A stretch of DNA of 64,000 nt from an uncultured Planctomycetales bacterium (GCA_964572155.1 CAZNDZ010000001.1:1082732-1146731), one strand, 5' to 3'; positions 1,951 to 15,437 are shown, counted from the first letter of the stretch. Notes: generated by a model from the letters alone, not told the origin. A program made the numbers and translations.

Positions 1951-1982
1951 AATTAAGAGGGTTGTTAAAAGGGAGAAGGGCG

Positions 1983-4262
1983 ATGTGGAAAAATTTAGCT
2001 GGGATTATTCCCGAAGAATTAAAGAAACAAAGGGCATGGGTTGGCTATGTGCTTAAACCTAAGGGGAATAAGATCGATAAAATCCCCATGAATGTGATGA
2101 CTGGCCAGCCTGCCAAGAGCAATGATCCGGAAACGTGGACGGATTTTGATTCTGCCGTGGCATTGGCTATTCAGCGCGGATATGCGGGCATAGGTTTTAT
2201 GTTCCAGCCGCCTTTTGTAGGCATAGATATAGACCATTGCGTGCAAGATGGCCGCTTATCTGACATGGCGGTCGATATTTTAAAGATCATGAATTGCTAC
2301 GCTGAATATTCCCCCAGCGGCACAGGTGTCCACTTGATCTTTAAAGGTGAAATCAAACGCGCAAGGCGCATTGCAGGCAAGGGACTAGAGATTTATTCAA
2401 AAGGAAGATTTTTTACTGTTACGGGAAATCGGCTAATGGATTATCCAGCTGTGGTTGAGGACAGGACATCGGATCTTAATCAGATATGGTCAAAATATTT
2501 TGAACCGCAAGAGGACATATTATCCAAGATTGCCAAGAGTAAAGATGCCGATAAATTTAACAAACTTTTTTCCGGTCAATGGCAGGGTGATTATCCATCA
2601 CAAAGCGAAGCTGATCTTGCATTGTGCAATAAATTGGCGTTTTGGACAGGCAAGGACGCAGGCAAAATGGATTCGCTATTTCGGCAATCCGGTTTGTTCA
2701 GGACCAAATGGGATGATAAGCATTTTGGCGATGGCAAGACCTATGGCCAAAGTGTTATTGAAAAGGCAGTTAGCAGTTGTTCGAGTTCTTATGAACATCC
2801 TTCCGAGCATTTCTGGCCGCGTCAGAGAGAAAAAATTCCTCAAGGCGAAATCATCACCCGCGACTGTGAAGAAAACATTAAACAATTCTTTCAAGATCAG
2901 CAGGGCAATTGTTTTATTGTTCTGCCCTTCGATAACCATCAAGAGGTGTGCCTAACCGACAGCAGTCGTTTTCGCAATTGGATGGCCAAGCGTTATCGCG
3001 ATGCGTATGGTGCACCACCCAATAATGAAGCATTAAAACAAGCCCGGGTTCAGGTGGAAGCGATTTGCGAGTCATCGCCCAAGGTGGAATTGTTTAACCG
3101 CGTTGGCTGGCATGACGAGGCCATTTATTACGATTTAACAACACCAGACTGGAAGGGAATTAAACTTACCAAAGATGGATGGGAGATTGTAGCGTTACCA
3201 TCCATATTCCGCAGGTATAACCATCAAAGCCAGCAAGTTATTCCAGTTAAAGGTGGCGACCCAAAAGAGATTTTGAAATTTTGCAATGTTGCAAAAGAAG
3301 ACCACTGTCTTTTTATGGTCACTATTGCTACGTTTTTTATTCCCAATATTCCTCATGTCATACCCACCCAAAGCGGTGAGCAGGGTACCGGCAAATCCAA
3401 CAATAGCCGCAAGATCAAAGGATTAAGTGACCCATCCAAGGTTATGCTTATTTCTGCTCCCAAGGATTTGGAGCAAGCGCAAATGATCGCGGACAAGCAT
3501 TGGATTAATAACTTTGACAATATTTCCCGCATCCCTGAATGGCTTAGCGACTTTTTATGTCGTGCAGTCACAGGCGAAGGCGACATGAAGCGCAGTTTAT
3601 ACACTAATGACGATGAGTACATTCGTTCTTACCGTAGATGTTTTGTGCTTAATGGAATTGGCGTATCGGCATGGCGACCTGATTTATTAGACCGCTCGAT
3701 TGTCTTTGATGTTCCTGTTCTTTCTAACCGCCGTCCAGAGCGATTAATTGAAAAGGAATGGAACGAAGCCTTACCGCGCATATTAGGCGGCTTCTTTACA
3801 GCTATTTCCAAAGCCATGAATAGCGTTGATGCCGTAACCGGCCATGAGAAATTTCGCATGGCCGACTTTGCCCAATGGGGCGCCTGTCTTGCTGATGAAT
3901 TAGGTTTCAGCCGAGAAGAGTTTTTCCGCAAGTATCAGGATTCCGTTAATCGTAAATGGCAGGACACCGCTGAGGACAGCTCATTTGCCGCGAAGATCAG
4001 AAACTTGGTTGATAGCAATGCCGGGTTTTGGCAAGGGTCGGTCAGTGACATATTGGAAAAAATAAAATCCCCTAATGGTTTTGATAAGAACATTCCACAA
4101 ACGCCCAAGGCACTCGCGTCTGAATTGATGCGTTTGGCACCTGTCATGCGCAATGTGGGTATTGACATTATCCGAAGTGATAAGCGCGAGGCAGGAACAG
4201 GCAGGAAGGTTTTTATATTCAGGAAGCGGCCAGATGAACTTTCTGAGCCAAGGCCATTTTGA
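1983..4262 (+). CDS. Replication protein: N-terminal primase-polymerase-like domain fused to a P-loop (D5/SF3-like) helicase domain (phage/plasmid primase P4-family-like)
   Basis: Walker A motif GEQGTGKS in the C-terminal half. The N-terminal region is rich in conserved acidic and His residues (GIDIDHC, SGTGVHL). An RBS (GGGAGAAGGG) precedes the ATG at 1983; the track ORF begins at TTG 1962. Confidence 0.75.
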   Translation: MWKNLAGIIPEELKKQRAWVGYVLKPKGNKIDKIPMNVMTGQPAKSNDPETWTDFDSAVALAIQRGYAGIGFMFQPPFVGIDIDHCVQDGRLSDMAVDILKIMNCYAEYSPSGTGVHLIFKGEIKRARRIAGKGLEIYSKGRFFTVTGNRLMDYPAVVEDRTSDLNQIWSKYFEPQEDILSKIAKSKDADKFNKLFSGQWQGDYPSQSEADLALCNKLAFWTGKDAGKMDSLFRQSGLFRTKWDDKHFGDGKTYGQSVIEKAVSSCSSSYEHPSEHFWPRQREKIPQGEIITRDCEENIKQFFQDQQGNCFIVLPFDNHQEVCLTDSSRFRNWMAKRYRDAYGAPPNNEALKQARVQVEAICESSPKVELFNRVGWHDEAIYYDLTTPDWKGIKLTKDGWEIVALPSIFRRYNHQSQQVIPVKGGDPKEILKFCNVAKEDHCLFMVTIATFFIPNIPHVIPTQSGEQGTGKSNNSRKIKGLSDPSKVMLISAPKDLEQAQMIADKHWINNFDNISRIPEWLSDFLCRAVTGEGDMKRSLYTNDDEYIRSYRRCFVLNGIGVSAWRPDLLDRSIVFDVPVLSNRRPERLIEKEWNEALPRILGGFFTAISKAMNSVDAVTGHEKFRMADFAQWGACLADELGFSREEFFRKYQDSVNRKWQDTAEDSSFAAKIRNLVDSNAGFWQGSVSDILEKIKSPNGFDKNIPQTPKALASELMRLAPVMRNVGIDIIRSDKREAGTGRKVFIFRKRPDELSEPRPF

Positions 4263-4448
4263 TGTTCACACAGTTACTGCCTTGGCAGTAAAGGGGTTGT
4301 GGAGTTTTGTGAATATCGTGAATCACACAATCTAATTAAGAAGATTTAATAAAAGAAAAGGAGGTAATAACACAAACAACAATCGTAGAAATCACAGGAA
4401 AAGAAGTTCACAACGCTCACTAACATCACAAAAACGGAGGGTAGGACA

Positions 4449-5111
4449 ATGAAACTCAATTTCTTAAAAGTTTTAAACAATCAGAACAACACGCCGGAAG
4501 AAATCGCCGAGCAGATCGTAGCGCTGGAGCAAAAGCAGGTCGAATACGAAAAGCAATTTTCCGCCTTACGCCTACAGGCTAAAGAATTTCGTCAAAAGAA
4601 ACTGTGCGGTGATGTTATATCTGACGCGCAGATCAATGAAGCAGATCGCAAGGTTGAGAATGCCAGCCTTGATTTAGAAGCGGTCAATGAAAGCATAACC
4701 AAGCTAATTGACAAATTACGTAAGTCGTATGAATCCATCGTCGCCAATGGCCATATCGTTGGAGGCCAGAAAATGAAAACAATAGAACCTGAGCGTGATC
4801 GTCTCATGGAAGAACTGGCGCACGCTAAAGCCAAGCTATTGGTTATCGCTGAGCAAATATGGGGAAATGGTGTAATCCGCAAGTTAAAAGATAGCAGCGT
4901 ATTTGATGATGACGCTAAAACTGATCCTATTATGAAAGAAGATGTGGAACGATTAAGGATGGCCGTTAAACAGCCGAGCTATTATGACAAGTATCAGCAA
5001 GCTCAAAGTTATTCCAGCTGGACGAATAATTTAAGGGTTGAGGATGAGATTGCCCGGGTTCTTGAACAACAGCGGATTAAATTAAACGTACCAGTTAAGG
5101 AATCGGTTTAA
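4449..5111 (+). CDS. Hypothetical coiled-coil protein (220 aa)
   Basis: GGAGGG RBS 7 nt upstream. Heptad-rich, charged sequence with no catalytic motif. Confidence 0.5.
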   Translation: MKLNFLKVLNNQNNTPEEIAEQIVALEQKQVEYEKQFSALRLQAKEFRQKKLCGDVISDAQINEADRKVENASLDLEAVNESITKLIDKLRKSYESIVANGHIVGGQKMKTIEPERDRLMEELAHAKAKLLVIAEQIWGNGVIRKLKDSSVFDDDAKTDPIMKEDVERLRMAVKQPSYYDKYQQAQSYSSWTNNLRVEDEIARVLEQQRIKLNVPVKESV

Positions 5112-5402
5112 GTAAAAATATGCGGAGGGGCTTAAGAAGGTTTCCATAGGCCTGATTAAGTCTTGCTATGAACATGGTGCATAGCAAAAGGGCGGGCGCT
5201 TCCCCCAAAACAATCCTTCCTCCGCACACCTTTTTTGGGTCCTTCCGGGTGGGGTACCGTATGCGGGTCGGGCGATGCTCGGACTGTCAGTGATACAAAA
5301 ATTAAAAAATGTCGTGTCGTGGTCGTATGGGGTGGTTTTGGGTGGTGCTTATGTGTATTCCTCGTCAACAATTTAATTTTATGATGCGACATAGGGTCGG
5401 AC

Positions 5403-5446
5403 AAACCGGACATTGTCAATGTCCGAATGTCCTATTGTGTCCGGTT
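5403..5446. promoter_or_regulatory. Nested inverted repeat (AAACCGGACA...TGTCCGGTTT enclosing the 17-bp palindrome GGACATTGTCAATGTCC); candidate operator upstream of the HTH gene and hsdR
   Basis: Perfect palindrome read directly at 5408-5424 with 10-bp outer arms. It lies ~80 bp upstream of the 5525 ORF. Confidence 0.35.
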
Positions 5447-5524
5447 TAAGGAATTGGTTGTTTGTGAAATTATATGTGATAGAATACGGTTTAAAATGTA
5501 ACAGGCAAATGAGGAGATTTATTA

Positions 5525-5710
5525 ATGCAAGGGCTTGTTAAAGCATTTACATCAGAAGAGATAGCAGAGTATCTACGATTGCATCCGTACACCATTCGAC
5601 GCTTGGCAAGGGAAGGAAAAATCCCCGCCTTCCGTGCTGGCGGCCAATGGCGGTTTAGGAAGGATGATATTGATAAGTGGTCGAAGGCGTATCCGTTTGT
5701 AAAAAAATAA
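5525..5710 (+). CDS. Excisionase/AlpA-family helix-turn-helix DNA-binding protein (61 aa)
   Basis: The sequence ...EIAEYLRLHPYTIRRLAREGKIPAFRAGGQWRFRKDDIDKW is typical of MerR-like excisionase-family HTH_17 proteins. The gene ends 28 bp before hsdR. Confidence 0.7.
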   Translation: MQGLVKAFTSEEIAEYLRLHPYTIRRLAREGKIPAFRAGGQWRFRKDDIDKWSKAYPFVKK

Positions 5711-5738: not shown

Positions 5739-8495
5739 ATGCCAGAAAAACTAAACGAAGCAAAAACACGTGTCAAAATCATTGATCCCCTTTTAACAGC
5801 TGCTGGATGGGATTTAAACGATCTCACCAAAGTCCGCAGGGAAGTGCCCGTGGATGGATATGACAAAGAACCGTGGAATGGTGTGACGGATTATTGCCTT
5901 TATGACTCCCGCAATAATGTTTTGGCTGTTGTCGAAGCCAAGAAAATGAGCCGAAGCCCACGGGAAGCAGACGAGCAGTTGCGGTATTACTTAAATTACA
6001 TTAGCAAAAATCAGGAATTTACACCGTTTGGATTTATGTCTAATGGGCTCAATACTTATTTCTGGGAAATAGGTTTAGCGCATCCGCGTTTGATTGCAGG
6101 ATTCTTTAGTCCAGAAGATTTGTCGCGTTTGTTATTCCTTCGCCAAAACCAAAAAGAACTTAGTGATTCATCTATTAATCGATCAATTGCCAGTCGACCT
6201 TATCAACAAGAAGCAGTCCGTCGGGTTTGTGAAGCGTTTTCACAAGGCAAAAGACGTGCGCTGATCGTGATGGCAACAGGAACAGGGAAGACTCGCACCA
6301 CAATGGCGCTTATTGAAATATTTCTAAAAACAAATCAGGCTAGGAATGTTCTGTTCTTGGCTGATCGTGATGCGTTGGTTGAGCAGGCGTTATCGGATGG
6401 ATTTAAATCCCATTTACCAAATGAACCACGGGACAGGATTTATACGCGCAATATCGACACGACAAAACGTTTATTTGTGGCAACAGAACAAACAATGAAT
6501 GTGTGTTATACAAAATTTAGTCTTGGATTTTTTGATTTGATTATTTTTGATGAGGCGCATCGTTCCATATTTCACAGGTTTTCAGAAGTCATGGATTATT
6601 TTGACGCGCGTATGGTTGGTCTTACGGCAACACCTGCTACTTTTATTGATAGAGACACATTCGGTGTTTTTGGTTGTCAAAATAGCACACCGACATTCCT
6701 TTACGACTATAAGACCGCAGTAAAGGAAGAATATCTGGTTGATTTTAGTTTATACCAAGCCCAGACAGGATTTCAGCGCAAAGGGATTAAGGGTGTTGAA
6801 TTAAGTGAAGAGGACAAGAACGCTTTAATTACTCAAGGTATTGATCCTGATGAGATTGATTATTCAGGAACAGATATTGAAGTGGCTGTCAGCAACAAAG
6901 ACACCATACGCAAACAATGCGAAGAAATTTGGGATGCGTGTTTAAAAGATCAATCAGGTCAGCTTCCAGGTAAAACAATCATCTTTGCCATGACCAAGGA
7001 ACACGCAGAGCGTATCCGCGAAGTCTTTGAAGAAATGTATCCGCAACAACTGGATTTAGTGCAGGTTATTACGTCCAGCACAGAGCGTGTGCGCGACGGC
7101 AGTTACGGTGATGGTTTAATTACAAAATTCAAAAAGAATAATTTGCCAAGGATTGCTATCTCTGTTGATATGCTCGACACCGGAATCGACGTGCCGGAGG
7201 TGGTTAATCTGGTTTTTATGAAGCCCGTTCAGTCACAAATCAAAATGTGGCAAATGATCGGACGCGGCACCAGAAGCAATGCCACATGCATGTATTTTGA
7301 TAGATTGCCAGACGGTAAGAAAACAGAATTTAAAATCATTGATTTCTGGCAAAACGATTTTCAAAAAGACCCCAAGGGTGGGGCATCTCCCGTTATTCCT
7401 ATTTTGGTGTCCATTTTTAACACGAGATTAAAGAGTTTTGAAGCTCTCGATAAATCAAGGCAGGCCGAAGATTATGCGCAGGTGGTTGCAGATTTACGCG
7501 CTATGGTTGAACGTATTCCTGTCGATTGTTTCTCAGTTAGAAGAGTGTGGGTAGAAATTGAACATGTTTGGGGTGATGAGTTTTGGACGTTATTGACTAA
7601 GGATAAAATTGAATTTTTACGCCTTAGGATTGGGCCCTTGTTGCGATTTGTGGGAGAGGTTGATGTTGCCGCTGAAACATTTACCAGTAAACTTGAGAGA
7701 TTGCGTTATCAAGTATTCACTGGCAAGGTAATGCCTGATTTATTGCGTTCCATTGCCGAAGATGTCAGCCTGTTGCCCGAATATATTTTGAAAGATGAAA
7801 AGTATGCTAAATCAGCAGAGTTGTGTTTGTCTGATAAATTGGCAAGTGCATCACCTAAAGAATTGCGTCAGGTCATTATAGATTTGGCGGGTGTGATGCG
7901 AAACCGTAGGAATCGGCAGAATACCTTTATTTCAATTGATCTGCCAGATTTCATTGATACGCGCGGCCTTATTTCAATTGGCGAGGGTGGTGAGCAGATT
8001 TACGTTGAAGAGTATAGGAAACGGGTTGAAGCAAAGGTGCTGTCTATCATAGAAAATCATCCGGCCATTGAAGCGATCCGTCAGGGCAGGGATGTTAGTG
8101 AAGAAGATTTAATTTCTCTAGAACGGGCTTTGCATGATGGGCTAACAGGGGGAGATATACAGCTAAGTACGCTGAATATCAAGCGGGCGTATGGTCTAAA
8201 GGTCAGTAGTTTCCTTGGGTTTATTCGTCATATTTTATCGCTGGATACCATTCCCGAATATGCGTCTGTCGTTGGACGTTGCTTTGAGAATTTTATTACA
8301 GCGCATCATTACAATGCGGATCAGATTTTATTTTTGCGCGCTGTCCAGAATGTGTTCTTACAAAAGCGAAAACTTAGTGAAGCGGATCTATACGAACCGC
8401 CATTAACCAATTTTGGCAGGAACGCGGTTGATAAATTATTTTCACCAGATGATGTGCGTGATCTTCTGCAATTTGCCCAAAGGATAGAGGTCTAA
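5739..8495 (+). CDS. hsdR: Type I restriction enzyme R subunit
   Basis: N-terminal HsdR_N-like segment (TRVKIIDPLLTAAGWD). DEAD-box helicase Walker A (MATGTGKTRT), DEAH-like box (FDEAH) and the helicase C-terminal domain are present. Confidence 0.85.
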   Translation: MPEKLNEAKTRVKIIDPLLTAAGWDLNDLTKVRREVPVDGYDKEPWNGVTDYCLYDSRNNVLAVVEAKKMSRSPREADEQLRYYLNYISKNQEFTPFGFMSNGLNTYFWEIGLAHPRLIAGFFSPEDLSRLLFLRQNQKELSDSSINRSIASRPYQQEAVRRVCEAFSQGKRRALIVMATGTGKTRTTMALIEIFLKTNQARNVLFLADRDALVEQALSDGFKSHLPNEPRDRIYTRNIDTTKRLFVATEQTMNVCYTKFSLGFFDLIIFDEAHRSIFHRFSEVMDYFDARMVGLTATPATFIDRDTFGVFGCQNSTPTFLYDYKTAVKEEYLVDFSLYQAQTGFQRKGIKGVELSEEDKNALITQGIDPDEIDYSGTDIEVAVSNKDTIRKQCEEIWDACLKDQSGQLPGKTIIFAMTKEHAERIREVFEEMYPQQLDLVQVITSSTERVRDGSYGDGLITKFKKNNLPRIAISVDMLDTGIDVPEVVNLVFMKPVQSQIKMWQMIGRGTRSNATCMYFDRLPDGKKTEFKIIDFWQNDFQKDPKGGASPVIPILVSIFNTRLKSFEALDKSRQAEDYAQVVADLRAMVERIPVDCFSVRRVWVEIEHVWGDEFWTLLTKDKIEFLRLRIGPLLRFVGEVDVAAETFTSKLERLRYQVFTGKVMPDLLRSIAEDVSLLPEYILKDEKYAKSAELCLSDKLASASPKELRQVIIDLAGVMRNRRNRQNTFISIDLPDFIDTRGLISIGEGGEQIYVEEYRKRVEAKVLSIIENHPAIEAIRQGRDVSEEDLISLERALHDGLTGGDIQLSTLNIKRAYGLKVSSFLGFIRHILSLDTIPEYASVVGRCFENFITAHHYNADQILFLRAVQNVFLQKRKLSEADLYEPPLTNFGRNAVDKLFSPDDVRDLLQFAQRIEV

Positions 8496-8498
8496 AAA

Positions 8499-10205
8499 AT
8501 GCTTACAGATTCAAATTTAAAATCAAAAGTTGATTCACTGTGGAATAAGTTATGGTCAGGAGGATTGGCTAATCCTTTAGATGCGATTGAACAGCTTTCA
8601 TTTTTATTGTTTTTAAAGCGTCTGGAAGAAGCCGAAGAGGATCGCGAGCGAGTCGCTAAGTTGCGTAAATTGAAATATGAACCAATATTTAAAGATAAGG
8701 AATTGCGTTGGTCATATTGGTCAAATTTAGATGCGGCGAGCGCTCTTAAAGCAGTAAAGGAAAAAGTATTTCCTTTTATTAAAGAATTAGGTGGTGTCGG
8801 CGGCTCGTTTGCAGAGCAAATGGAAAATGCTGAATTTAAGATTAATAAACCAAATTTATTAATTGAAGCATGTCGTCTGATCGATGAAATGCAAATTTCA
8901 AGCCAGAATCAGGATGTTCAGGGTGATCTTTATGAATACCTTTTAAGTAAGCTAAATATCGCTGGTACCAACGGCCAGTTTAGAACGCCACGTCATATCA
9001 TTCGCATGATGGTGCAGATGATTGACCCGCGTCCCGGTGAAAAGATGTGTGACCCGGCGGCCGGTACGTGCGGATTTCCGGTTAATTTCTATCAGTACAT
9101 TTTAGAAAAGAATACCGATCCAAAATTGCTCACCTATGATGAAGATGGGTTTCCCCACAAATTGGTTGGCGATAAATTAACCAAGGAACAAAATGAATTC
9201 TTACAAAACGAGGCAGTCACTGCGTATGACAACGACGCAGGAATGACCATGCTTCGCATTGGATCAATGAATTTGATCTTGCATGGTATAGCACAACCCA
9301 ATTTTAAGCATACTGATGCACTTTCCAAAGCATATAACGAAGAACGAAAATACGACATTATCTTAGCCAATCCACCTTTTAAGGGGGCAATTGACGCATC
9401 TGACGTTAATCCTACATTACCGACAAAATGTAAGAAGACGGAACTCTTATTTCTACATCTGTTTTTAAGGCTTTTAGAAAACGGTGGACGCGCGGCTGTC
9501 ATTGTGCCAGATGGTGTTTTATTCGGTTCCAATCAGGCGCATTTAGAGATTAGAAAGAAGCTAATTGAGGAAAATCGACTGGATGGTGTTGTGTCCATGC
9601 CAGCGGGTGTGTTTAGGCCTTATGCAGGAGTATCAACAGCCGTATTGTTTTTCACCAAGGGCGCATCAACCGAGAAAGTCTGGTTTTACGATATGGAACA
9701 TGATGGCTTCTCGCTGGATGATAAACGTCAAAAGGTTGAGGAGACTGATATTCCTGATTTGCTTGAGTGCTGGAGGAATCGGTCTGATAAAAAGTTTTCA
9801 CAAACCAGAGATAAGCGTTTGGCAGAGCTTCAAGAGAAGATTACGCCACTAAAGAAAAAACGGTTGGCGCTTTTGGCGGAGGTTAATTGGTTAACATTTG
9901 AACAGGTAATCGCTGAAGATGGTAATGATAAGGCGCGATTAGCATTAGAAGCAGATAAATCAAAGCTGGACGATTTGCATAAAGAAATTGAACCCCTTCA
10001 GAATGAAATCAATCAGCTTACCCGCCAATTTTGGGTGGCCAAGGACAAGCTGAAGGCCAATAAATATGATTTATCCTCTAGCCGATACCGTTTGATTGAG
10101 CAGGATGAGATTTATTATGAGAAACCTGCAATGACTTTACAAAGATTAGATGAAATTAATAAAGTTTCGGATAGTCTTATTGTTAATCTTAAGAAAGAGA
10201 TTTAG
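8499..10205 (+). CDS. hsdM: Type I restriction-modification N6-adenine DNA methyltransferase subunit
   Basis: Contains the motif ILANPPF (NPPF catalytic motif) and the AdoMet-binding segment DPAAGTCGF. It starts 4 nt after the hsdR stop. Confidence 0.9.
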   Translation: MLTDSNLKSKVDSLWNKLWSGGLANPLDAIEQLSFLLFLKRLEEAEEDRERVAKLRKLKYEPIFKDKELRWSYWSNLDAASALKAVKEKVFPFIKELGGVGGSFAEQMENAEFKINKPNLLIEACRLIDEMQISSQNQDVQGDLYEYLLSKLNIAGTNGQFRTPRHIIRMMVQMIDPRPGEKMCDPAAGTCGFPVNFYQYILEKNTDPKLLTYDEDGFPHKLVGDKLTKEQNEFLQNEAVTAYDNDAGMTMLRIGSMNLILHGIAQPNFKHTDALSKAYNEERKYDIILANPPFKGAIDASDVNPTLPTKCKKTELLFLHLFLRLLENGGRAAVIVPDGVLFGSNQAHLEIRKKLIEENRLDGVVSMPAGVFRPYAGVSTAVLFFTKGASTEKVWFYDMEHDGFSLDDKRQKVEETDIPDLLECWRNRSDKKFSQTRDKRLAELQEKITPLKKKRLALLAEVNWLTFEQVIAEDGNDKARLALEADKSKLDDLHKEIEPLQNEINQLTRQFWVAKDKLKANKYDLSSSRYRLIEQDEIYYEKPAMTLQRLDEINKVSDSLIVNLKKEI

Positions 10206-10209
10206 AAAA

Positions 10210-11319
10210 ATGTCATCTGTGCGTTTTGATGAAGTTGCAGAATTTATTAATGGCAAGGCTTTTAAGCCTTCAGATTGGTCAGAGTCTGGATTGCCAATTA
10301 TTCGTATTCAAAATTTAACAGGTACCAGTGAAAGATTTAATTATTTTAATGGTGATGTAGAAGATAAATTTCGCGTTAGGAATGGGGATATTCTAATATC
10401 TTGGTCTGCATCGTTAGGTGTTTACTATTGGCAGGGAGCAGAAGCTGTATTAAATCAACATATTTTTAAAGTTTGCCCGAAAAAGAACATAGATCCAGAT
10501 TACTTTTATTACGCATCGACAGGTAAACTTCAAGAAATGGTTGCCCAAGTTCATGGGGCAACGATGCAACATATAACCAAAGATCGTTTCGATGCGCTTT
10601 TAATTGCCTTGCCCTCTTTAACTGAACAAAGAAGAATAGCAAAATATTTAAAACAAGCCGACCGCCTTCGCCGTATCCGCCGTTTTGCGCTTGAAATGAG
10701 CGATTCATTTCTTCCAGCTGTTTTTGTTGAGATGTTTGGTGATCCTGTGAGAAATGCCCAGGCATGGCCAACAGAATCCTTAGGCGTGCTTGGAAAAGTG
10801 ACAACAGGTGGGACTCCTCCAAGCGCGAAATCAGGAATGTTTGGCGGGAAGACTCCTTTTATTACGCCTGGTGACCTAGAAGTTGATACGAAATATTCGC
10901 AAAGGTTTTTGACTGATGATGGTGTTAATGAAAGTGTTATCGTTAGATCAGGTTCAACATTGGTATGTTGCATTGGGGCAACAATTGGAAAGACGGATAA
11001 AGCGCGTGTTAAATGCTCTTTCAATCAGCAGATCAATGCCATTGAATGGGGAAAAAATATTAATGATGATTTTGGTTTTTATCTTATGCGATTTTTTTCA
11101 AAGATTGTAGCTGAACGTGGTCAATCGACCACATTGCCTATTTTGAAGAAGTCAGCGTTTGAAGAGTTGATTTTGCCAGTTCCACCGTTACCTATTCAAG
11201 AAAAGTTTGCTGATATTGTCGAACGACATGAACAATTACGTTCTACGCAGGTCGAATCCTTACGCCAAGCCGAGCATTTGTTCCAATCCTTGCTTCATCA
11301 GGCGTTTAGTGGGAAATAA
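10210..11319 (+). CDS. hsdS: Type I restriction-modification specificity subunit (two target-recognition domains)
   Basis: ATG at 10210 directly follows the hsdM stop. Shows bipartite target-recognition-domain (TRD) architecture and the conserved central and C-terminal coiled regions typical of HsdS (LPSLTEQRRIAKYL..., LPVPPLPIQEKFADIVE). Confidence 0.8.
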   Translation: MSSVRFDEVAEFINGKAFKPSDWSESGLPIIRIQNLTGTSERFNYFNGDVEDKFRVRNGDILISWSASLGVYYWQGAEAVLNQHIFKVCPKKNIDPDYFYYASTGKLQEMVAQVHGATMQHITKDRFDALLIALPSLTEQRRIAKYLKQADRLRRIRRFALEMSDSFLPAVFVEMFGDPVRNAQAWPTESLGVLGKVTTGGTPPSAKSGMFGGKTPFITPGDLEVDTKYSQRFLTDDGVNESVIVRSGSTLVCCIGATIGKTDKARVKCSFNQQINAIEWGKNINDDFGFYLMRFFSKIVAERGQSTTLPILKKSAFEELILPVPPLPIQEKFADIVERHEQLRSTQVESLRQAEHLFQSLLHQAFSGK

Positions 11320-11333
11320 GAGAGGTATTCATT

Positions 11334-12458
11334 ATGGATAAATGGTTAGGAATAATAACTGGTACTAATCGAGGTATTGTGTCTTTTGAATGGCAACAGG
11401 ATGCACAGAACAAGATTTCTGGCACCTTCAATGTTTATGACGTGGATAATACCAATATTTCTGGAAAAGTAGAAGGTGTCGTTAATGGTGAAAAGATCGG
11501 TTTAAAATTATTAAATATTCAGCCACAAGGAGAAGGGATTTCAAAGTCAGGAACAGCCGACTTAGTTATGAACGGTAAAGAGCTTAAAGGAGTATGGGCT
11601 ACAGATTTAGGCGCAAAAGGTGAATGTGTTCTTTATCAATTAATTCAATCACAGCAAAGTGCTGTATCAGACTTGCCGGATCCAGATTTAACTCTGGAAA
11701 CCAAAGACATAACGATTGCTTTTTGTACTTTCAATAAGAAAAGCATTGAGGATATTTTTAAGATAATGACAGGTATCGTTAATGCAATAAGGAAAGATAA
11801 AAAGGCGCAGGTATTGCCTCCAATTTATTCGATTACTTATGATGCGGAAGAGAGAATTAGAACGTATTCTTTGTCAGAATTTTTACAAAAATTGAATGAT
11901 GCCAAGAAAATCTGGTATGTGGGTTTTGAATTTAAAGATAAGGCCGATCTAAAAAATATTTTTATCAATATTTTTTATCAAGAAAATATTGGTTCAAATA
12001 TAAGAAGCAACGTTTTAGTTGAAAGTACAGATAAAGAAATTGTAATGGTGATCCCAGAAATGGTGAGAGGACTGGTCAGCAAGGTAAGGAATAGAAATTT
12101 ATTTTTTTACCATTGGTTATTTGAGGCGGTCATTCAATTGGCCGCTGTCATAGGAATGTTTCTTTTGTCGTATTTAGTTAGCAATAAGCTGACAATATCA
12201 TTGCCTAACTATAATTTTGCTTTGGATAAGCCCTATATCTTCGTGATTGTGCTTATTATATTTTCCAATCTCTGGACATATGTCTCGAGAATGATTTTAG
12301 GGTTGATTCATAGAAATTTTCCTGTCGTTGACATAAGAAATCGGGAGCGGGTAGGATACCTTCGAGAGGTGATCGTGACTCTTCTCGGGGCATTTATTTT
12401 GTGGGCATTTACAAATTTCGGATCGTTGATTTATAAATGGCTTCTTATAAAGAATTAA
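11334..12458 (+). CDS. Uncharacterised protein: ~260-aa soluble N-terminal region plus three predicted C-terminal transmembrane helices
   Basis: Hydrophobic stretches LFFYHWLFEAVIQLAAVIGMFLLSYLV, IFVIVLIIFSNLWTYVSRMILGLI and VTLLGAFILWAFTNFGSLIY. No recognisable family. It sits 15 nt after hsdS. Confidence 0.6.
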   Translation: MDKWLGIITGTNRGIVSFEWQQDAQNKISGTFNVYDVDNTNISGKVEGVVNGEKIGLKLLNIQPQGEGISKSGTADLVMNGKELKGVWATDLGAKGECVLYQLIQSQQSAVSDLPDPDLTLETKDITIAFCTFNKKSIEDIFKIMTGIVNAIRKDKKAQVLPPIYSITYDAEERIRTYSLSEFLQKLNDAKKIWYVGFEFKDKADLKNIFINIFYQENIGSNIRSNVLVESTDKEIVMVIPEMVRGLVSKVRNRNLFFYHWLFEAVIQLAAVIGMFLLSYLVSNKLTISLPNYNFALDKPYIFVIVLIIFSNLWTYVSRMILGLIHRNFPVVDIRNRERVGYLREVIVTLLGAFILWAFTNFGSLIYKWLLIKN

Positions 12459-12485
12459 GCATCAAAATCCAATAGGTGAATAGTA

Positions 12486-13781
12486 ATGGCAGTACTTAAT
12501 CAAGAGAGCATCAAGGAAATTTATTCTGAGATACGGCTTATGGGCATCCGTTATGCGGGAATGCTTAATAATGTTCATCAGTTATCTGCCACTTTAAAAG
12601 AAGAGAAGGCCAAGGAATATCTTTCTTATGGGGTTGGTAGGAGGATAACGGTTCTAAACCGTTGCATAGAAAACGTATTTACTCTTTTTCCGCTAAATCA
12701 AGAAGCCCCGTTAGAGGCAGATAAAGTAAAAGACGTCGATATTAATCTACATGCTTTTTGTGTAAATATTTTCGGCCTTTTGGATAATTTAGCTTGGGTT
12801 TGGGTATATGAAAAGAAATTGTCGCCAAAGATAAATGAGCATAATGTTGGATTATTTAAAGAAAAAGTGAAGAGATCCTTACCCAAAGCATTTCAAGAGT
12901 ATTTAGATTCAGACTTAATTCAAAAATGGCACCATAAATACCAAAAAGATTATCGAAACGCTGTATCGCACAAGATTCCATTATATGTGCCACCTAAGAC
13001 GCTAAATTCTGAACAGGCCGGACAATATCAAGAAATAGAGAATAAAATTAACGATTGTTATAAGGCTTTTATACATGGGAATTCTGGGGATCAAATCAGT
13101 AAAATAGAAAAGTTGCGAACAGAACAAGAAGCCGTTGGTAGTGCTTGTCCGCTTTTTGTCCATTCATTTACCGAGGCAGATGGCCAGTTATTCATACATC
13201 CTCAAATGATCGCTGATTTTAAGACCATTGAAGAAATTGTCGGAAAATTTTGTCAAGCAATTCATTCTGGGGAAGTTAAGCAAGAGGAAGCCCAAACAGA
13301 TGAAGAAAAGTTTAAATTCTTAGCTGAGCATTTCTTTTACGAAATCCAGCAACTTCTTGTTGCTGTGTACGTCGTTAAGCATCCATTGCCATTCTGGATC
13401 AATATAAAATTAGAGGTCTTTCTTTTACATGCGCGATCTTTGTATGAATTCTTTTATTCAAAAGAAAAGCGTAATGACGATGATGCCCGTGCGTATGATT
13501 TTGTCGGTGATGTCAATAATTGGCTGAAGGAGAGGCCATTAAAATCCAGTGATATTGAACAATCCATTAAGCGTATGAATAAAGAGCTTTCGCATATAAC
13601 TTATAAAAGGCATTCTGGGGTTGTTCTTGAGAAACAATGGGATTTGACGCCTATTAAGGATCACTTGTTGGCCGTGACAAAAGTTTTCTTAGAGAATGTT
13701 CCCAATGGATCAAAGATTATGGATGATATTAATAAATTTGAGGTGATATTAGTTAACAATGGTCTTCCGCCGAATGCATGA
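12486..13781 (+). CDS. Uncharacterised protein (431 aa) carrying two Rx4-6H (HEPN-like) motifs; putative RNase-type defence effector
   Basis: RNAVSH at residues 157-162 and RMNKELSH at 363-370. Otherwise no recognisable family. The assignment is motif-only. Confidence 0.5.
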   Translation: MAVLNQESIKEIYSEIRLMGIRYAGMLNNVHQLSATLKEEKAKEYLSYGVGRRITVLNRCIENVFTLFPLNQEAPLEADKVKDVDINLHAFCVNIFGLLDNLAWVWVYEKKLSPKINEHNVGLFKEKVKRSLPKAFQEYLDSDLIQKWHHKYQKDYRNAVSHKIPLYVPPKTLNSEQAGQYQEIENKINDCYKAFIHGNSGDQISKIEKLRTEQEAVGSACPLFVHSFTEADGQLFIHPQMIADFKTIEEIVGKFCQAIHSGEVKQEEAQTDEEKFKFLAEHFFYEIQQLLVAVYVVKHPLPFWINIKLEVFLLHARSLYEFFYSKEKRNDDDARAYDFVGDVNNWLKERPLKSSDIEQSIKRMNKELSHITYKRHSGVVLEKQWDLTPIKDHLLAVTKVFLENVPNGSKIMDDINKFEVILVNNGLPPNA

Positions 13782-14362
13782 AGGTATTCATATTCATTGC
13801 TATGCTGACACTTCGTTTAACAAATAAAACTTTGAAAGAGCTGCCTTTCCCCAAGTCTGCCATTTTGACCTTGCCCGAGCATGGGGGCGTGCTGGAAGAC
13901 TGGTATGTGCATGTGTTTGTCCATGAAAAGCGGCGGCATTTGATGTTTACGCACGCGGGGTCGTTGGTGTCGTTTGTGGCATCTGGGGTTTATCAGCGTG
14001 ATATGAAGGATATAGAAAAGATTTTCAGGCGTGAGTTTAGTCGGTTTTTGGCATTAGAGAAATTTGACCAGCAAGATATTCTGATGTTCCAATTAGCCTT
14101 GGGTGATATGCGCTTGGCCAAGACCATTGACCGCAGGGTAACGGGATCAATGGTTGAGCTAATCAAAAGTTATAAATGGTATGTGAGCGACACGTATAAT
14201 CATAAGGGACATGTGCCGGAGGATTATGCGCTCTACGAATTAAATCGAATTCCGCTGGGTGCGTTAAAATATGCGTTCGCCATTGAAATGTTCCATAAAA
14301 CCGTGGACGTGCTCAAAGGTTTTCACCATATCCCCGGGCATGGGGCAGTGGGATTGAATTAG
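13778..14362 (+). CDS. Uncharacterised protein (194 aa), translationally coupled to the upstream gene (ATGA overlap), with distinctly higher GC than its neighbours
   Basis: Start overlaps the preceding stop. His-rich (HVFVHEKRRH, HKGH, FHHIPGHG). GC looks ~45% against ~33% for the two upstream genes. Confidence 0.5.
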   Translation: MKVFIFIAMLTLRLTNKTLKELPFPKSAILTLPEHGGVLEDWYVHVFVHEKRRHLMFTHAGSLVSFVASGVYQRDMKDIEKIFRREFSRFLALEKFDQQDILMFQLALGDMRLAKTIDRRVTGSMVELIKSYKWYVSDTYNHKGHVPEDYALYELNRIPLGALKYAFAIEMFHKTVDVLKGFHHIPGHGAVGLN

Positions 14363-14414
14363 GAAGAACAGGTCAGGACGCATCATAGAATTATCAAAAT
14401 TGGGAGTTGACTAA

Positions 14415-15437
14415 ATGGGGAAAAAATTGCAAACGGTTCATAAAGATAACAAAGTTATTCTTTATACTACGGCGGATGGCAAGGTTACCGTTGATGTGTT
14501 TTTTTCGCGGGACAATTTCTGGTTGACCCAAAAAACCTTGGCAGATTTATTCGGGGTTAATGTTCCAGCAGTATCTCGGCATTTAAAGAATATTTATGCC
14601 AGCAAAGAACTTGTGAGGGAGGCAACTGTTTCCAAAATGGAAACTGTTCAAACTGAGGGTGGCCGTAAGATTTCTAGGTATGTTGAGTATTATAATTTGG
14701 ACGCTGTAATTGCCGTAGGGTATCGGGTCAACTCTGTTAAAGCCACGCATTTTCGGATCTGGGCCACAAATACCCTTAGGGAGTTCATGGTTAAGGGTTT
14801 TGTCCTTAATGATGAAATGCTTAAAAATGGGCGGGCTTTTGGTGAAGATTATTTTGATGAACTTTTGGAAAAAATTCGGGAGATTCGCGCAAGCGAGCGT
14901 AGGGCATATCAGAAGATCGCTGATGTGTTTGAGCAATGTAGCAGTGATTACCAAAGTAATAGCCAGGAAACACAGCTGTTTTATCAGATTGTCCAGAATC
15001 ATCTGCACTTTGCGACAGTTGGGAAGACTGCGGCAGAGATTGTTTATCAACGAGCGGACAGTAAAAAACCATTTATGGGTTTGACGACATGGAAGAATTC
15101 TCCAAAAGGGAAGGTTTTAAAGAGTGATGTTACAGTGGCAAAGAATTATTTAAATCAGGAAGAAGTATCCAAGTTGAATCGTCTGGTGACCATGTTTATA
15201 GATTTTGCTGAACTTCGGGCGTTAAATCGGCGCATTATGACAATGAAGGATTGGCTTAAACAAATTGATAAGTTTCTTCAATTGACCGATCAACAGGTGC
15301 TTAGTAATGCGGGGAAGATTTCACATGAAATGGCGACTGCCAAAGCCCATCAAGAATACGATAAATTTCGGGTTAAGCAAGATAGTGAGTACGTGTCAAA
15401 TTTTGATCAGGAATTCGCTAAGTATCTGAAGGGCTAA
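14415..15437 (+). CDS. rhuM: RhuM-family protein (Fic/DOC-related virulence protein RhuM family)
   Basis: Strong resemblance to RhuM proteins along the whole length (ILYTTADGKVTVDV, AVGYRVNS, RIWATNTLREFMVKGFVLNDE, DYFDELLEKIREIRASERR, MGLTTWKN, VTVAKNYL, NRLVTMF). Confidence 0.85.
   Translation: MGKKLQTVHKDNKVILYTTADGKVTVDVFFSRDNFWLTQKTLADLFGVNVPAVSRHLKNIYASKELVREATVSKMETVQTEGGRKISRYVEYYNLDAVIAVGYRVNSVKATHFRIWATNTLREFMVKGFVLNDEMLKNGRAFGEDYFDELLEKIREIRASERRAYQKIADVFEQCSSDYQSNSQETQLFYQIVQNHLHFATVGKTAAEIVYQRADSKKPFMGLTTWKNSPKGKVLKSDVTVAKNYLNQEEVSKLNRLVTMFIDFAELRALNRRIMTMKDWLKQIDKFLQLTDQQVLSNAGKISHEMATAKAHQEYDKFRVKQDSEYVSNFDQEFAKYLKG

Follow-up and report, generated by a model that had tools for sequence, protein, structure and literature searches.

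Separate cargo cassettes behind a Type I restriction-modification operon in an uncultured Planctomycetales bacterium

Introduction

Do three closely spaced genes that follow a Type I restriction-modification (RM) operon make up one anti-phage system, or have they come to stand together by separate routes? The question is raised by a stretch of 64,000 nt of DNA from an uncultured Planctomycetales bacterium (GCA_964572155.1, CAZNDZ010000001.1:1082732-1146731; hereafter the window, with positions counted from its first letter), in which three genes, here called g1, g2 and g3, lie between hsdS and a gene of the RhuM family. An initial annotation proposed that they form a single module made up of a membrane protein, a putative HEPN nuclease and a His-rich partner, and named a lack of co-occurrence in other genomes as a ground for giving that proposal up. 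We report here that g1-g2, g3 and rhuM are separate recombination units and that the region is probably, in a reading we hold with moderate confidence, a defence-hotspot stack of independently acquired cassettes with no three-gene system in it.

Cargo of this general kind has ample precedent. Accessory toxin and abortive-infection genes are well described in RM loci, among them PrrC/RloC, RhuM, Doc and several HEPN families (PMC3710099), and the HEPN genes that have been linked to RM systems include PrrC/RloC, AbiU2, ApeA and HEC-08 (PMC3710099; bioRxiv 10.1101/2024.01.29.577857). A defence role is common among genes that are embedded in Type I RM systems, and a search of BREX, DISARM, Hma and Type I RM loci by 'guilt by embedding' has led to the validation of seven of nine candidates, with 145 untested PDC candidates now in PADLOC (bioRxiv 10.1101/2024.01.29.577857). 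Embedded genes in the sense of Payne et al. sit between the genes of one system, whereas the cargo described here follows the last RM gene, hsdS, and is adjacent rather than embedded.

Results

Related loci divide the three genes into two cassettes

A six-frame list of the open reading frames (ORFs) of the window places three co-directional ORFs on the + strand where they had been annotated, and PADLOC and Pfam searches bear out both the complete Type I RM operon upstream, with hsdR, hsdM and hsdS each present and intact, and the RhuM gene downstream (Table 1). The spacings are each one nucleotide shorter than first given: hsdS and g1 are 14 nt apart rather than 15, and g1 and g2 27 nt apart rather than 28.

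The boundaries of the units can be read from blastn comparisons with related loci, for which there was one informative comparator per cassette (L090, with its duplicate L103, for the first and L093 for the second). A further locus, L001, gives no independent information because it is the same island, identical to that of the window over 13.3 kb (100%). L090 and L103 share with the window a block of 2436 nt at 87.6% identity and nothing outside it. This block, which we call cassette A, starts 10 nt before the g1 start and ends 22 nt before the g2 stop, and it is preceded in L090 by the C-terminus of another HsdS (ending ...AKAFRGELVPQEG), which has no significant similarity to the HsdS of the window (best BLASTP E 0.04). 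On its other side, in place of g3, L090 carries an NTP_transf_2 (MNT)/HEPN toxin-antitoxin pair and a Fic gene.

The second comparator, L093, has a 573-nt block in common with the window, 88.3% identical, and no other DNA. This block, cassette B, is g3 alone, and its homology ends 2 nt past the g3 stop. The order of genes in L093 is hsdR-hsdM-hsdS, GajA (E 7.6e-177) and a UvrD-type helicase, DUF6933 (the family of g3), RhuM and Fic, and the proteins differ greatly in their identity to those of the window, at 90% for g3 versus 49% for RhuM, 27% for HsdS, 25% for HsdM and 23% for HsdR. The two comparisons show that cassette A, cassette B and RhuM are separate recombination units, each with its own history. 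Base composition differs between the cassettes as well, with a GC content of 0.354 for g1-g2 and 0.458 for g3, as the initial annotation had noticed, and of 0.40–0.42 for the hsd genes and rhuM. That annotation had also taken the position behind a Type I RM operon for a hotspot of defence type, which agrees with the finding that the same slot in related loci holds Gabija or an MNT-HEPN pair.

Several details of the junctions deserve mention in their own right. The recombination junction in L090 and L103 lies 22 nt before the g2 stop of the window, and beyond it (L090 2848-3026, and likewise in L103) the g2 ORF runs on into what resembles a remnant of an AlbA_2/Schlafen-type N-terminus (MKKSETIEFKKS...), so that the product is 483 aa long. 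In L093, the Gabija pair (5904-8995) stands between hsdS and the DUF6933-RhuM genes, which is the slot filled by g1-g2 in the window. Finally, the 9-nt direct repeat GGTATTCAT has three exact copies in the 64 kb, two of which fall at the two cassette A junctions; the coincidence was noticed post hoc, and the repeat may mark a recombination junction or may be there by chance.

Table 1. Positions of the genes, domains, motifs and cassettes discussed in the text. All lie on the strand shown, and positions are those of the window.
Feature	Position	Strand	Evidence
Mobile-element backbone 5' of the RM operon	1962..5710	+	Pfam, PHROGs
Primase-polymerase gene	1962-4262	+	Pfam NrS1-1 polymerase HBD domain 1e-29; PHROGs DNA primase 1.5e-87
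ORF of 220 aa, coiled-coil-like, between primase-polymerase and excisionase-like genes	4449-5111	+	no Pfam or PHROG match
HTH_17 excisionase-like gene	5525-5710	+	PHROGs excisionase 1e-12
hsdR-hsdM-hsdS, complete Type I RM operon, anchor for the stacked cargo	5739..11319	+	PADLOC
hsdR	5739-8495	+	PADLOC REase_I 4e-120
hsdM	8499-10205	+	PADLOC MTase_I 2e-159
hsdS	10210-11319	+	PADLOC Specificity_I 4e-74
Cassette A, g1 and g2 minus the last 22 nt of g2	11324..13759	+	blastn; GC 0.354
GGTATTCAT, 9-nt direct repeat, left copy at cassette A edge	11324..11332	+	exact 9-mer
g1, 374 aa	11334-12458	+	ORF list
g1 N module, aa 1 to about 110 (domain of ~105 aa), motif W.G..SGTNRG, predicted beta-rich	11334..11663	+	profile search
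g1 C module, mid domain (aa about 120-255) and three transmembrane helices, invariant SN.W	11691..12455	+	hydropathy, profile search
g2, 431 aa	12486-13781	+	ORF list
g2 N domain, aa 1 to about 262	12486..13271	+	homologue alignment
RNAVSH (R157-H162), Rx4H motif of g2 N domain	12954..12971	+	alignment
g2 C domain, aa 263-431	13272..13781	+	homologue search
RMNKELSH (R363-H370), claimed second motif (Rx6H)	13572..13595	+	alignment
g3, longest ORF, 194 aa	13778-14362	+	ORF list
GGTATTCAT, right copy, between g2 stop and cassette B start	13783..13791	+	exact 9-mer
Cassette B, g3 alone, single-gene block	13792..14364	+	blastn; GC 0.458
g3 from conserved start, DUF6933 protein, 186 aa	13802..14362	+	Pfam PF22016, homologue alignment
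RhuM-family gene, last of the stack	14415-15437	+	Pfam PF13310 1e-108; PADLOC candidate PDC-S05 4e-147

The trio does not recur at greater distance

Beyond these close comparators, relatives of g1 were found in eight independent contexts, seven of them besides the lineage of the window, DUF6933 genes in about nine, and the family of the g2 N domain (the first of two domains in g2, see below) at 80 genome loci. None of the seven other g1 loci, whose g1 relatives are 44–53% identical, has a relative of g2, g3 or RhuM, a search made within 8 kb in L003/L004, L005, L007/L008 and L009 and on the called genes or ORFs in loci that were shorter or lacked DNA. Searched with phmmer, 0 of the 80 g2 N-domain loci contain a relative of g1 or of the g2 C domain, one contains a DUF6933 gene (L023) and one contains relatives of the window's hsdR and hsdM (L017), and clustering of 405 neighbouring genes brought out no recurrent partner of the g2 N-domain genes. 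In L023 (2382-3776) the DUF6933 and g2 N-domain genes are adjacent, in reversed order and with a gap of about 195 nt.

DUF6933 is solitary in four of the five plasmid loci inspected (Mycolicibacterium, Adhaeribacter, Pseudonocardia and Eleftheria), and in the fifth, from Methylomonas, it is paired with a gene of the pRiA4b ORF-3 family. On the plasmid of Methylomonas sp. DH-1 (L094 5375-6525) the DUF6933 gene overlaps the stop of this gene (annotated as 'plasmid pRiA4b ORF-3 family'), and the same pair is found on three Methylomonas plasmids, where DUF6933 may have a different partner. A metagenome scan with the g1 alignment yielded six loci, mostly already seen. A scan of viral contigs found none of the three families, and tblastn searches of phage genomes found no relative of g1 and, for g2, one small contig.

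The trio is found together only in near-identical copies of the island, and with this the single module falls by the test that the initial annotation had set for it. A three-gene anti-phage system has in its favour that the genes are co-directional and tightly spaced, with no terminator detected in the gaps by a pattern scan, and that they are arranged identically in L001; the latter is, however, the same island at 100% identity and gives no independent information. The comparators speak in the other direction: g3 is replaced by the MNT-HEPN pair in L090/L103 and is present without g1 or g2 in L093, the homology blocks end between g2 and g3, and the GC content changes from 0.354 to 0.458 between them. 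To this are added the absence of any co-occurrence at the loci farther away in descent (7 + 80 + about 9) and an overlap of g2 and g3 that is probably not the real start of g3 (see below). We regard a three-gene system as extremely improbable.

g1 is a modular membrane protein that may or may not act with g2

The initial annotation found no named family for any of the trio. This stands for g1 and g2 in PADLOC, Pfam and NCBIfam, and does not stand for g3, which belongs to Pfam DUF6933. For g1 there is no above-threshold match in Pfam, NCBIfam or PADLOC and nothing in the sequences of the PDB; neither g1 nor g2 matches PADLOC v2 at E up to 1 (5027 models, Kiwa, Zorya, Gabija, Septu and Hachiman included), and ten distant relatives of g1 have no PADLOC match either. 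Close, full-length homologues of g1 are rare, numbering 27, each of about 370 aa, among 5.8 billion clusters. An exhaustive profile search extends the set to 245 relatives and makes two modules evident.

The three C-terminal transmembrane (TM) helices that had been predicted for g1 are matched by hydrophobic segments at aa about 260-284, 295-322 and 340-366, and they form, together with a mid domain, the C module (Table 1). Among 146 relatives, 97 consist of the C module as a stand-alone protein of about 262 aa (78 of these with three predicted TM segments) and 36 match the g1 profile by the N module only. Among the N-module-only proteins of at least 280 aa that were listed, TM segments are predicted towards the C-terminus in 19 of 20 (mostly two or three of them), and about 12 of the 20 have the layout of an N domain followed by three TM segments with a divergent C-terminal part. 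The C module also matches phrog_30208 (E 4e-9), a family of unknown function. Such an architecture invites the suggestion that the N domain of ~105 aa is a putative sensor or gate for a module of mid domain and three TM helices that would damage the membrane.

A comparison can be made with the TM effectors of CBASS, Pycsar and retrons, which are single-protein sensor and transmembrane effectors of abortive-infection or signalling defence. In g1, likewise, a soluble N-terminal region precedes a C-terminal multi-TM module, the TM module also occurs on its own, and the N module has been swapped onto other TM modules. Unlike these effectors, g1 has no signalling enzyme nearby, and no sequence relation between them appears in PADLOC or Pfam.

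The neighbours of several g1 relatives suggest conflict systems. Behind an hsdM-hsdS-hsdR operon, P0122 is separated from hsdR by 11 nt, and the gene that comes next encodes a TIR protein (PDC-S66, 9e-26). HEC-09 (NYN; 1.6e-50) stands after the relative in L005, where ArdC, a resolvase and a Type I RM system lie nearby; the relative in L007 is succeeded by PDC-S31 (DUF2971; 1e-33), and its island has genes for AbiV, PLD and NYN proteins as well as two integrases. In L003, which like L009, L099 and L101 looks ordinary, the next gene, of 192 aa, has no match in Pfam or PADLOC. An ORF just 5' of the g1 homologue in L104 (1-282) ends ...DLRLLRNLILHAKG..., in which RNLILH is an RNxxxH motif of HEPN type; this ORF has no PADLOC match.

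It is possible, then, that g1 and g2 are a genuine two-gene system, for instance a sensor or anchor with its effector, and that other g1 relatives work with TIR, NYN or DUF2971 effectors. The pair has moved as one 2.4-kb block into two distinct hsdS contexts, its genes are 27 nt apart and alike in GC content, the gene after a g1 relative is often effector-like and of the same orientation (TIR, NYN as HEC-09, DUF2971 as PDC-S31), and the ORF with the terminal RNxxxH motif adjoins a g1 relative in L104. The two copies of the cassette are, however, about 88% identical and so represent one recent lineage; the downstream partners of g1 relatives are themselves single-gene candidates in PADLOC; in L003, L009, L099 and L101 none of the genes beside g1 has a domain recognised as one of defence or effector proteins; and no g1-like gene is present at any of the 80 g2 N-domain loci, which have no recurring neighbour. 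On balance we think a two-gene system unlikely.

g2 joins two helical domains, the first of which may be an enzyme

At full length g2 has no match in Pfam (E up to 10), NCBIfam, PADLOC or the PDB sequences. A single-sequence AlphaFold2 model was unusable, with a predicted local distance difference test score (pLDDT) of 41, and the model described here was made from an alignment of 120 sequences, from which P0150 was left out because the full-length alignment had wrongly placed it on the N domain. This model is all-helical with a mean pLDDT of 78.9 (above 90 in the N domain and 50–65 in the C domain).

The N domain belongs to a family of stand-alone proteins of about 255 aa with 272 homologous clusters, nearly all of 250–265 aa. 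Relatives are present in 130 stretches of the GTDB species-representative collection, in metagenome-assembled genomes and isolates alike and across many phyla, which include Omnitrophota, Planctomycetota, Patescibacteria, Nitrospirota, Pseudomonadota and Bacteroidota. The alignment has a mean column identity of 47% and 28 invariant columns, and R157 and H162 of the motif RNAVSH, within the context YR[DN]A[LV]SH[RK]IPLYVPP (YRDALSH in relatives), show no substitution in 31 of 31 sequences; in the 120-sequence alignment their conservation is at least 90%. The invariance of these two residues and of several other His, Asp, Glu and Asn residues suggests an enzyme, and if this is a HEPN-like domain, R157-H162 would be its candidate catalytic pair. 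Its profile finds nothing among PDB sequences. Fusions of the domain to HEPN_AbiU2 are seen in P0054, P0063 and L014; the corresponding model, PF18734, matches only the distinct C domains of P0054 (2e-8) and P0063 (4e-11) and not g2. A HEPN-like RNase appears to be the single most likely activity of the N domain, a tentative assignment to which we give somewhat less credence than to its alternatives taken together.

The C domain is rare. It has three relatives, P0148 (71% identity), P0149 (partial) and P0150 (31%), which are stand-alone proteins of 172–190 aa with unrelated neighbour genes and which conserve the motifs LLHAR.L.EFF, DD.R.Y and NK.LSHIT..R. The second of the Rx4–6H motifs reported for g2, RMNKELSH, falls within this last region, where the four sequences agree throughout at N365, K366, S369, H370, I371, T372 and R375; it is no conserved Rx4–6H motif because R363 is replaced by D in P0150. 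Comparisons of the C domain with the N domain and with the AbiU2 domain by hhalign were negative, and a HEPN assignment for the C domain is poorly supported. Both motifs that the initial annotation had pointed out are present, as it said, but they are no more numerous than chance would have them: shuffled g2 sequences average 1.6 such motifs, and their count was rejected as evidence.

The genes around members of the g2 N-domain family are varied. About one in ten of those immediately adjacent match PADLOC models, among them PDC-S01, Type I and IIG RM, Dsr1, DrmD, PD-T4-7 and AbiGi, and in L017 and L010 the gene stands directly after Type I RM genes. Relatives also occur in accessory regions of conjugative rhizobial plasmids. 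Among the described families that come close in character is Bxe_C0808, a bacterial HEPN family with a conserved Rx4–6H that is given as 'in operon with AbiU2' (Anantharaman et al. 2013, Table 1; PMC3710099). The likeness, which is one of description only, lies in the bacterial distribution, the Rx4–6H motif and the link to AbiU2, to which the g2 N-domain family is fused in the three cases named above; the proteobacterial members of that family, Paraburkholderia included, are a further point of likeness.

g3 is a DUF6933 protein with a history separate from that of rhuM

The profile of Pfam DUF6933 (PF22016), a family without known function, is matched by g3 from end to end (E 1.6e-26, 93.5 bits against a cut-off of 27; residues 12-170 on profile positions 2-156 of 157). 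There is a weak match to PADLOC PDC-S63 (E 8.1e-7, 27 bits, positions 2-139 of 190) and one to a second model at E 1.5e-3; g3 is a DUF6933 protein with a weak similarity to a single-gene defence candidate. Its longest ORF has 11 histidines in 194 aa. Nothing related to g3 was found among PDB sequences, and no literature was found on DUF6933 or PDC-S63.

The longest ORF of g3 does overlap the end of g2 in an ATGA, as the initial annotation had it, but this is unlikely to be where translation starts. The residue equivalent to M9 is the first one in three relatives of g3 (MLTLR, MQIIRCT and MLVLRCT), the Pfam profile begins at residue 11-12 and the DNA homology to L093 begins at 13792, from all of which the start is probably the ATG at 13802, 20 nt after the g2 stop. 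Translational coupling of g3 to g2 through the overlap was rejected on account of this conserved start.

The position of g3 directly before rhuM raises the question of whether it might be a functional partner of RhuM, such as an antitoxin or regulator, the unit being g3-rhuM. DUF6933 stands directly 5' of RhuM in two unrelated Type I RM loci, with a gap of 52 nt in the window and of 11 nt in L093. Yet the identities of 90% for g3 and 49% for RhuM, with DNA homology that ends 2 nt past g3, indicate separate histories for the two genes, and RhuM is not found beside DUF6933 in L023 or on the plasmids of Methylomonas, Mycolicibacterium, Adhaeribacter, Pseudonocardia and Eleftheria. A partnership of this kind strikes us as quite improbable.

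The stack is carried by a putative mobile element

A mobile-element backbone lies 5' of the RM operon and includes a primase-polymerase gene, an excisionase-like gene and, between them, an ORF without a recognisable family (Table 1). The DNA just 5' of the primase-polymerase gene, at 1352-1945, is densely packed with iteron-like repeats, both direct and inverted, whose units measure ~25–40 nt (for example TTCGACACTTT...CACCTATGGGGG); they have the look of an origin of replication for the mobile element on which the RM island is carried. On the other side, beyond rhuM, are unrelated genes on the opposite strand and two pairs of 39–40-nt repeats with 90% identity (15539-15577/16327-16365 and 16402-16441/18573-18612); these have the appearance of repetitive extragenic palindromic or miniature inverted-repeat transposable elements and may mark an edge of the island. 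No tRNA, tmRNA or Rfam match was found anywhere in the window. The pattern scan detected no intrinsic terminator in any intergenic gap from hsdS to rhuM, which would make co-transcription from the hsd promoter plausible, and the output of the promoter and terminator scans was at chance level.

Discussion

In the model that we consider probable, a primase-polymerase/excisionase element carries a Type I RM operon to whose 3' end independent cargo cassettes would have been added, and each gene would probably be a conflict or abortive-infection-type gene complete in itself, serving as a backup to restriction. Within it, g2 would contribute an enzyme with an invariant Rx4H pair, most probably a dimeric HEPN-like RNase, fused to a rare helical C domain. 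Cargo at RM loci is of a known kind, and the genes here resemble the HEC and PDC candidates in being small accessory genes in or beside a Type I RM operon. The overlap with that catalogue is direct at several points, as RhuM is PDC-S05, g3 is weakly PDC-S63 and the neighbours of g1 relatives are PDC-S66, PDC-S31 and HEC-09. The difference is that the 5027 PADLOC models include no match for g1 or g2; the g1 and g2 N-domain families are absent from Pfam and NCBIfam as well as from PADLOC, and PHROGs describes neither of them.

A number of observations weigh against this model and are best taken together. Sampling is thin, at eight contexts for g1, about nine for DUF6933 and one comparator per cassette. 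The co-travel of g1 and g2 in two hsdS contexts, 27 nt apart and with a shared GC content, may reflect a real two-gene unit. Ordinary neighbours surround about half of the g1 contexts (L003, L009, L099 and L101) and most of the g2 N-domain contexts. The mechanism suggested for g1 is drawn entirely from its architecture, and for g2 the HEPN assignment of the N domain is plausible but weakly suggestive: a Pfam scan of 120 members of the family at E up to 10 gave 0 matches to HEPN models and only coiled-coil noise, hhalign of the N domain with the AbiU2 domain was negative (probability 1%), and a Foldseek search of the g2 model against PDB and BFVD viral structures found nothing at E ≤0.001. We know of no defence phenotype for any of the three families. 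HEC-09, the neighbour of the g1 relative in L005, was unprotective when tested (bioRxiv 10.1101/2024.01.29.577857).

Some of these observations would be equally at home with a different explanation, that the genes are not defence genes at all and are addiction, toxin-like, selfish or accessory genes, or genes with a cellular role, that accumulate at a recombination-prone site. Many relatives lie among housekeeping genes, those of the g2 N domain also in the accessory regions of conjugative rhizobial plasmids; the families were not found in viral contigs or phage genomes, one small contig excepted; and experimental evidence is absent for all three. What makes this explanation, too, an unlikely one is that relatives repeatedly adjoin RM systems and known or candidate defence genes, that Gabija fills the same slot in L093, and that TM-effector and Rx4H architectures are typical of abortive-infection proteins (general knowledge; PMC3710099).

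It is tempting to go further and to see in g1 a new modular membrane defence family, with an N-terminal sensor swapped among three-TM killing modules, that has come to be lodged behind the last genes of Type I RM operons, at their 3' ends, and acts with a variable downstream enzyme, a HEPN-like protein with an Rx4H motif here and TIR, NYN or DUF2971 elsewhere. The g1-g2 pair would then count as a new abortive-infection system of two components, and the family of the g2 N domain as a new family of RNase toxins. We think this distinctly unlikely, and return to the stack of independently acquired cassettes as the probable account of the region.

What this account changes is, above all, the unit of analysis, which is at least two separate cassettes and not one. 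The locus offers a clean natural example of the swapping of cargo at the 3' ends of Type I RM operons, in which the contents of the slot are, across related loci, g1-g2, Gabija or MNT-HEPN, to which DUF6933 and RhuM may or may not be joined. No surprising mechanism emerges from it, and two candidates for defence do: the rare modular membrane family of g1 and the widespread 255-aa family of the g2 N domain with its invariant Rx4H pair. If neither should protect, the locus would still be an ordinary defence-island mosaic, and if it is true that either family protects against phage, it would be a new family for the catalogue of bacterial defence.

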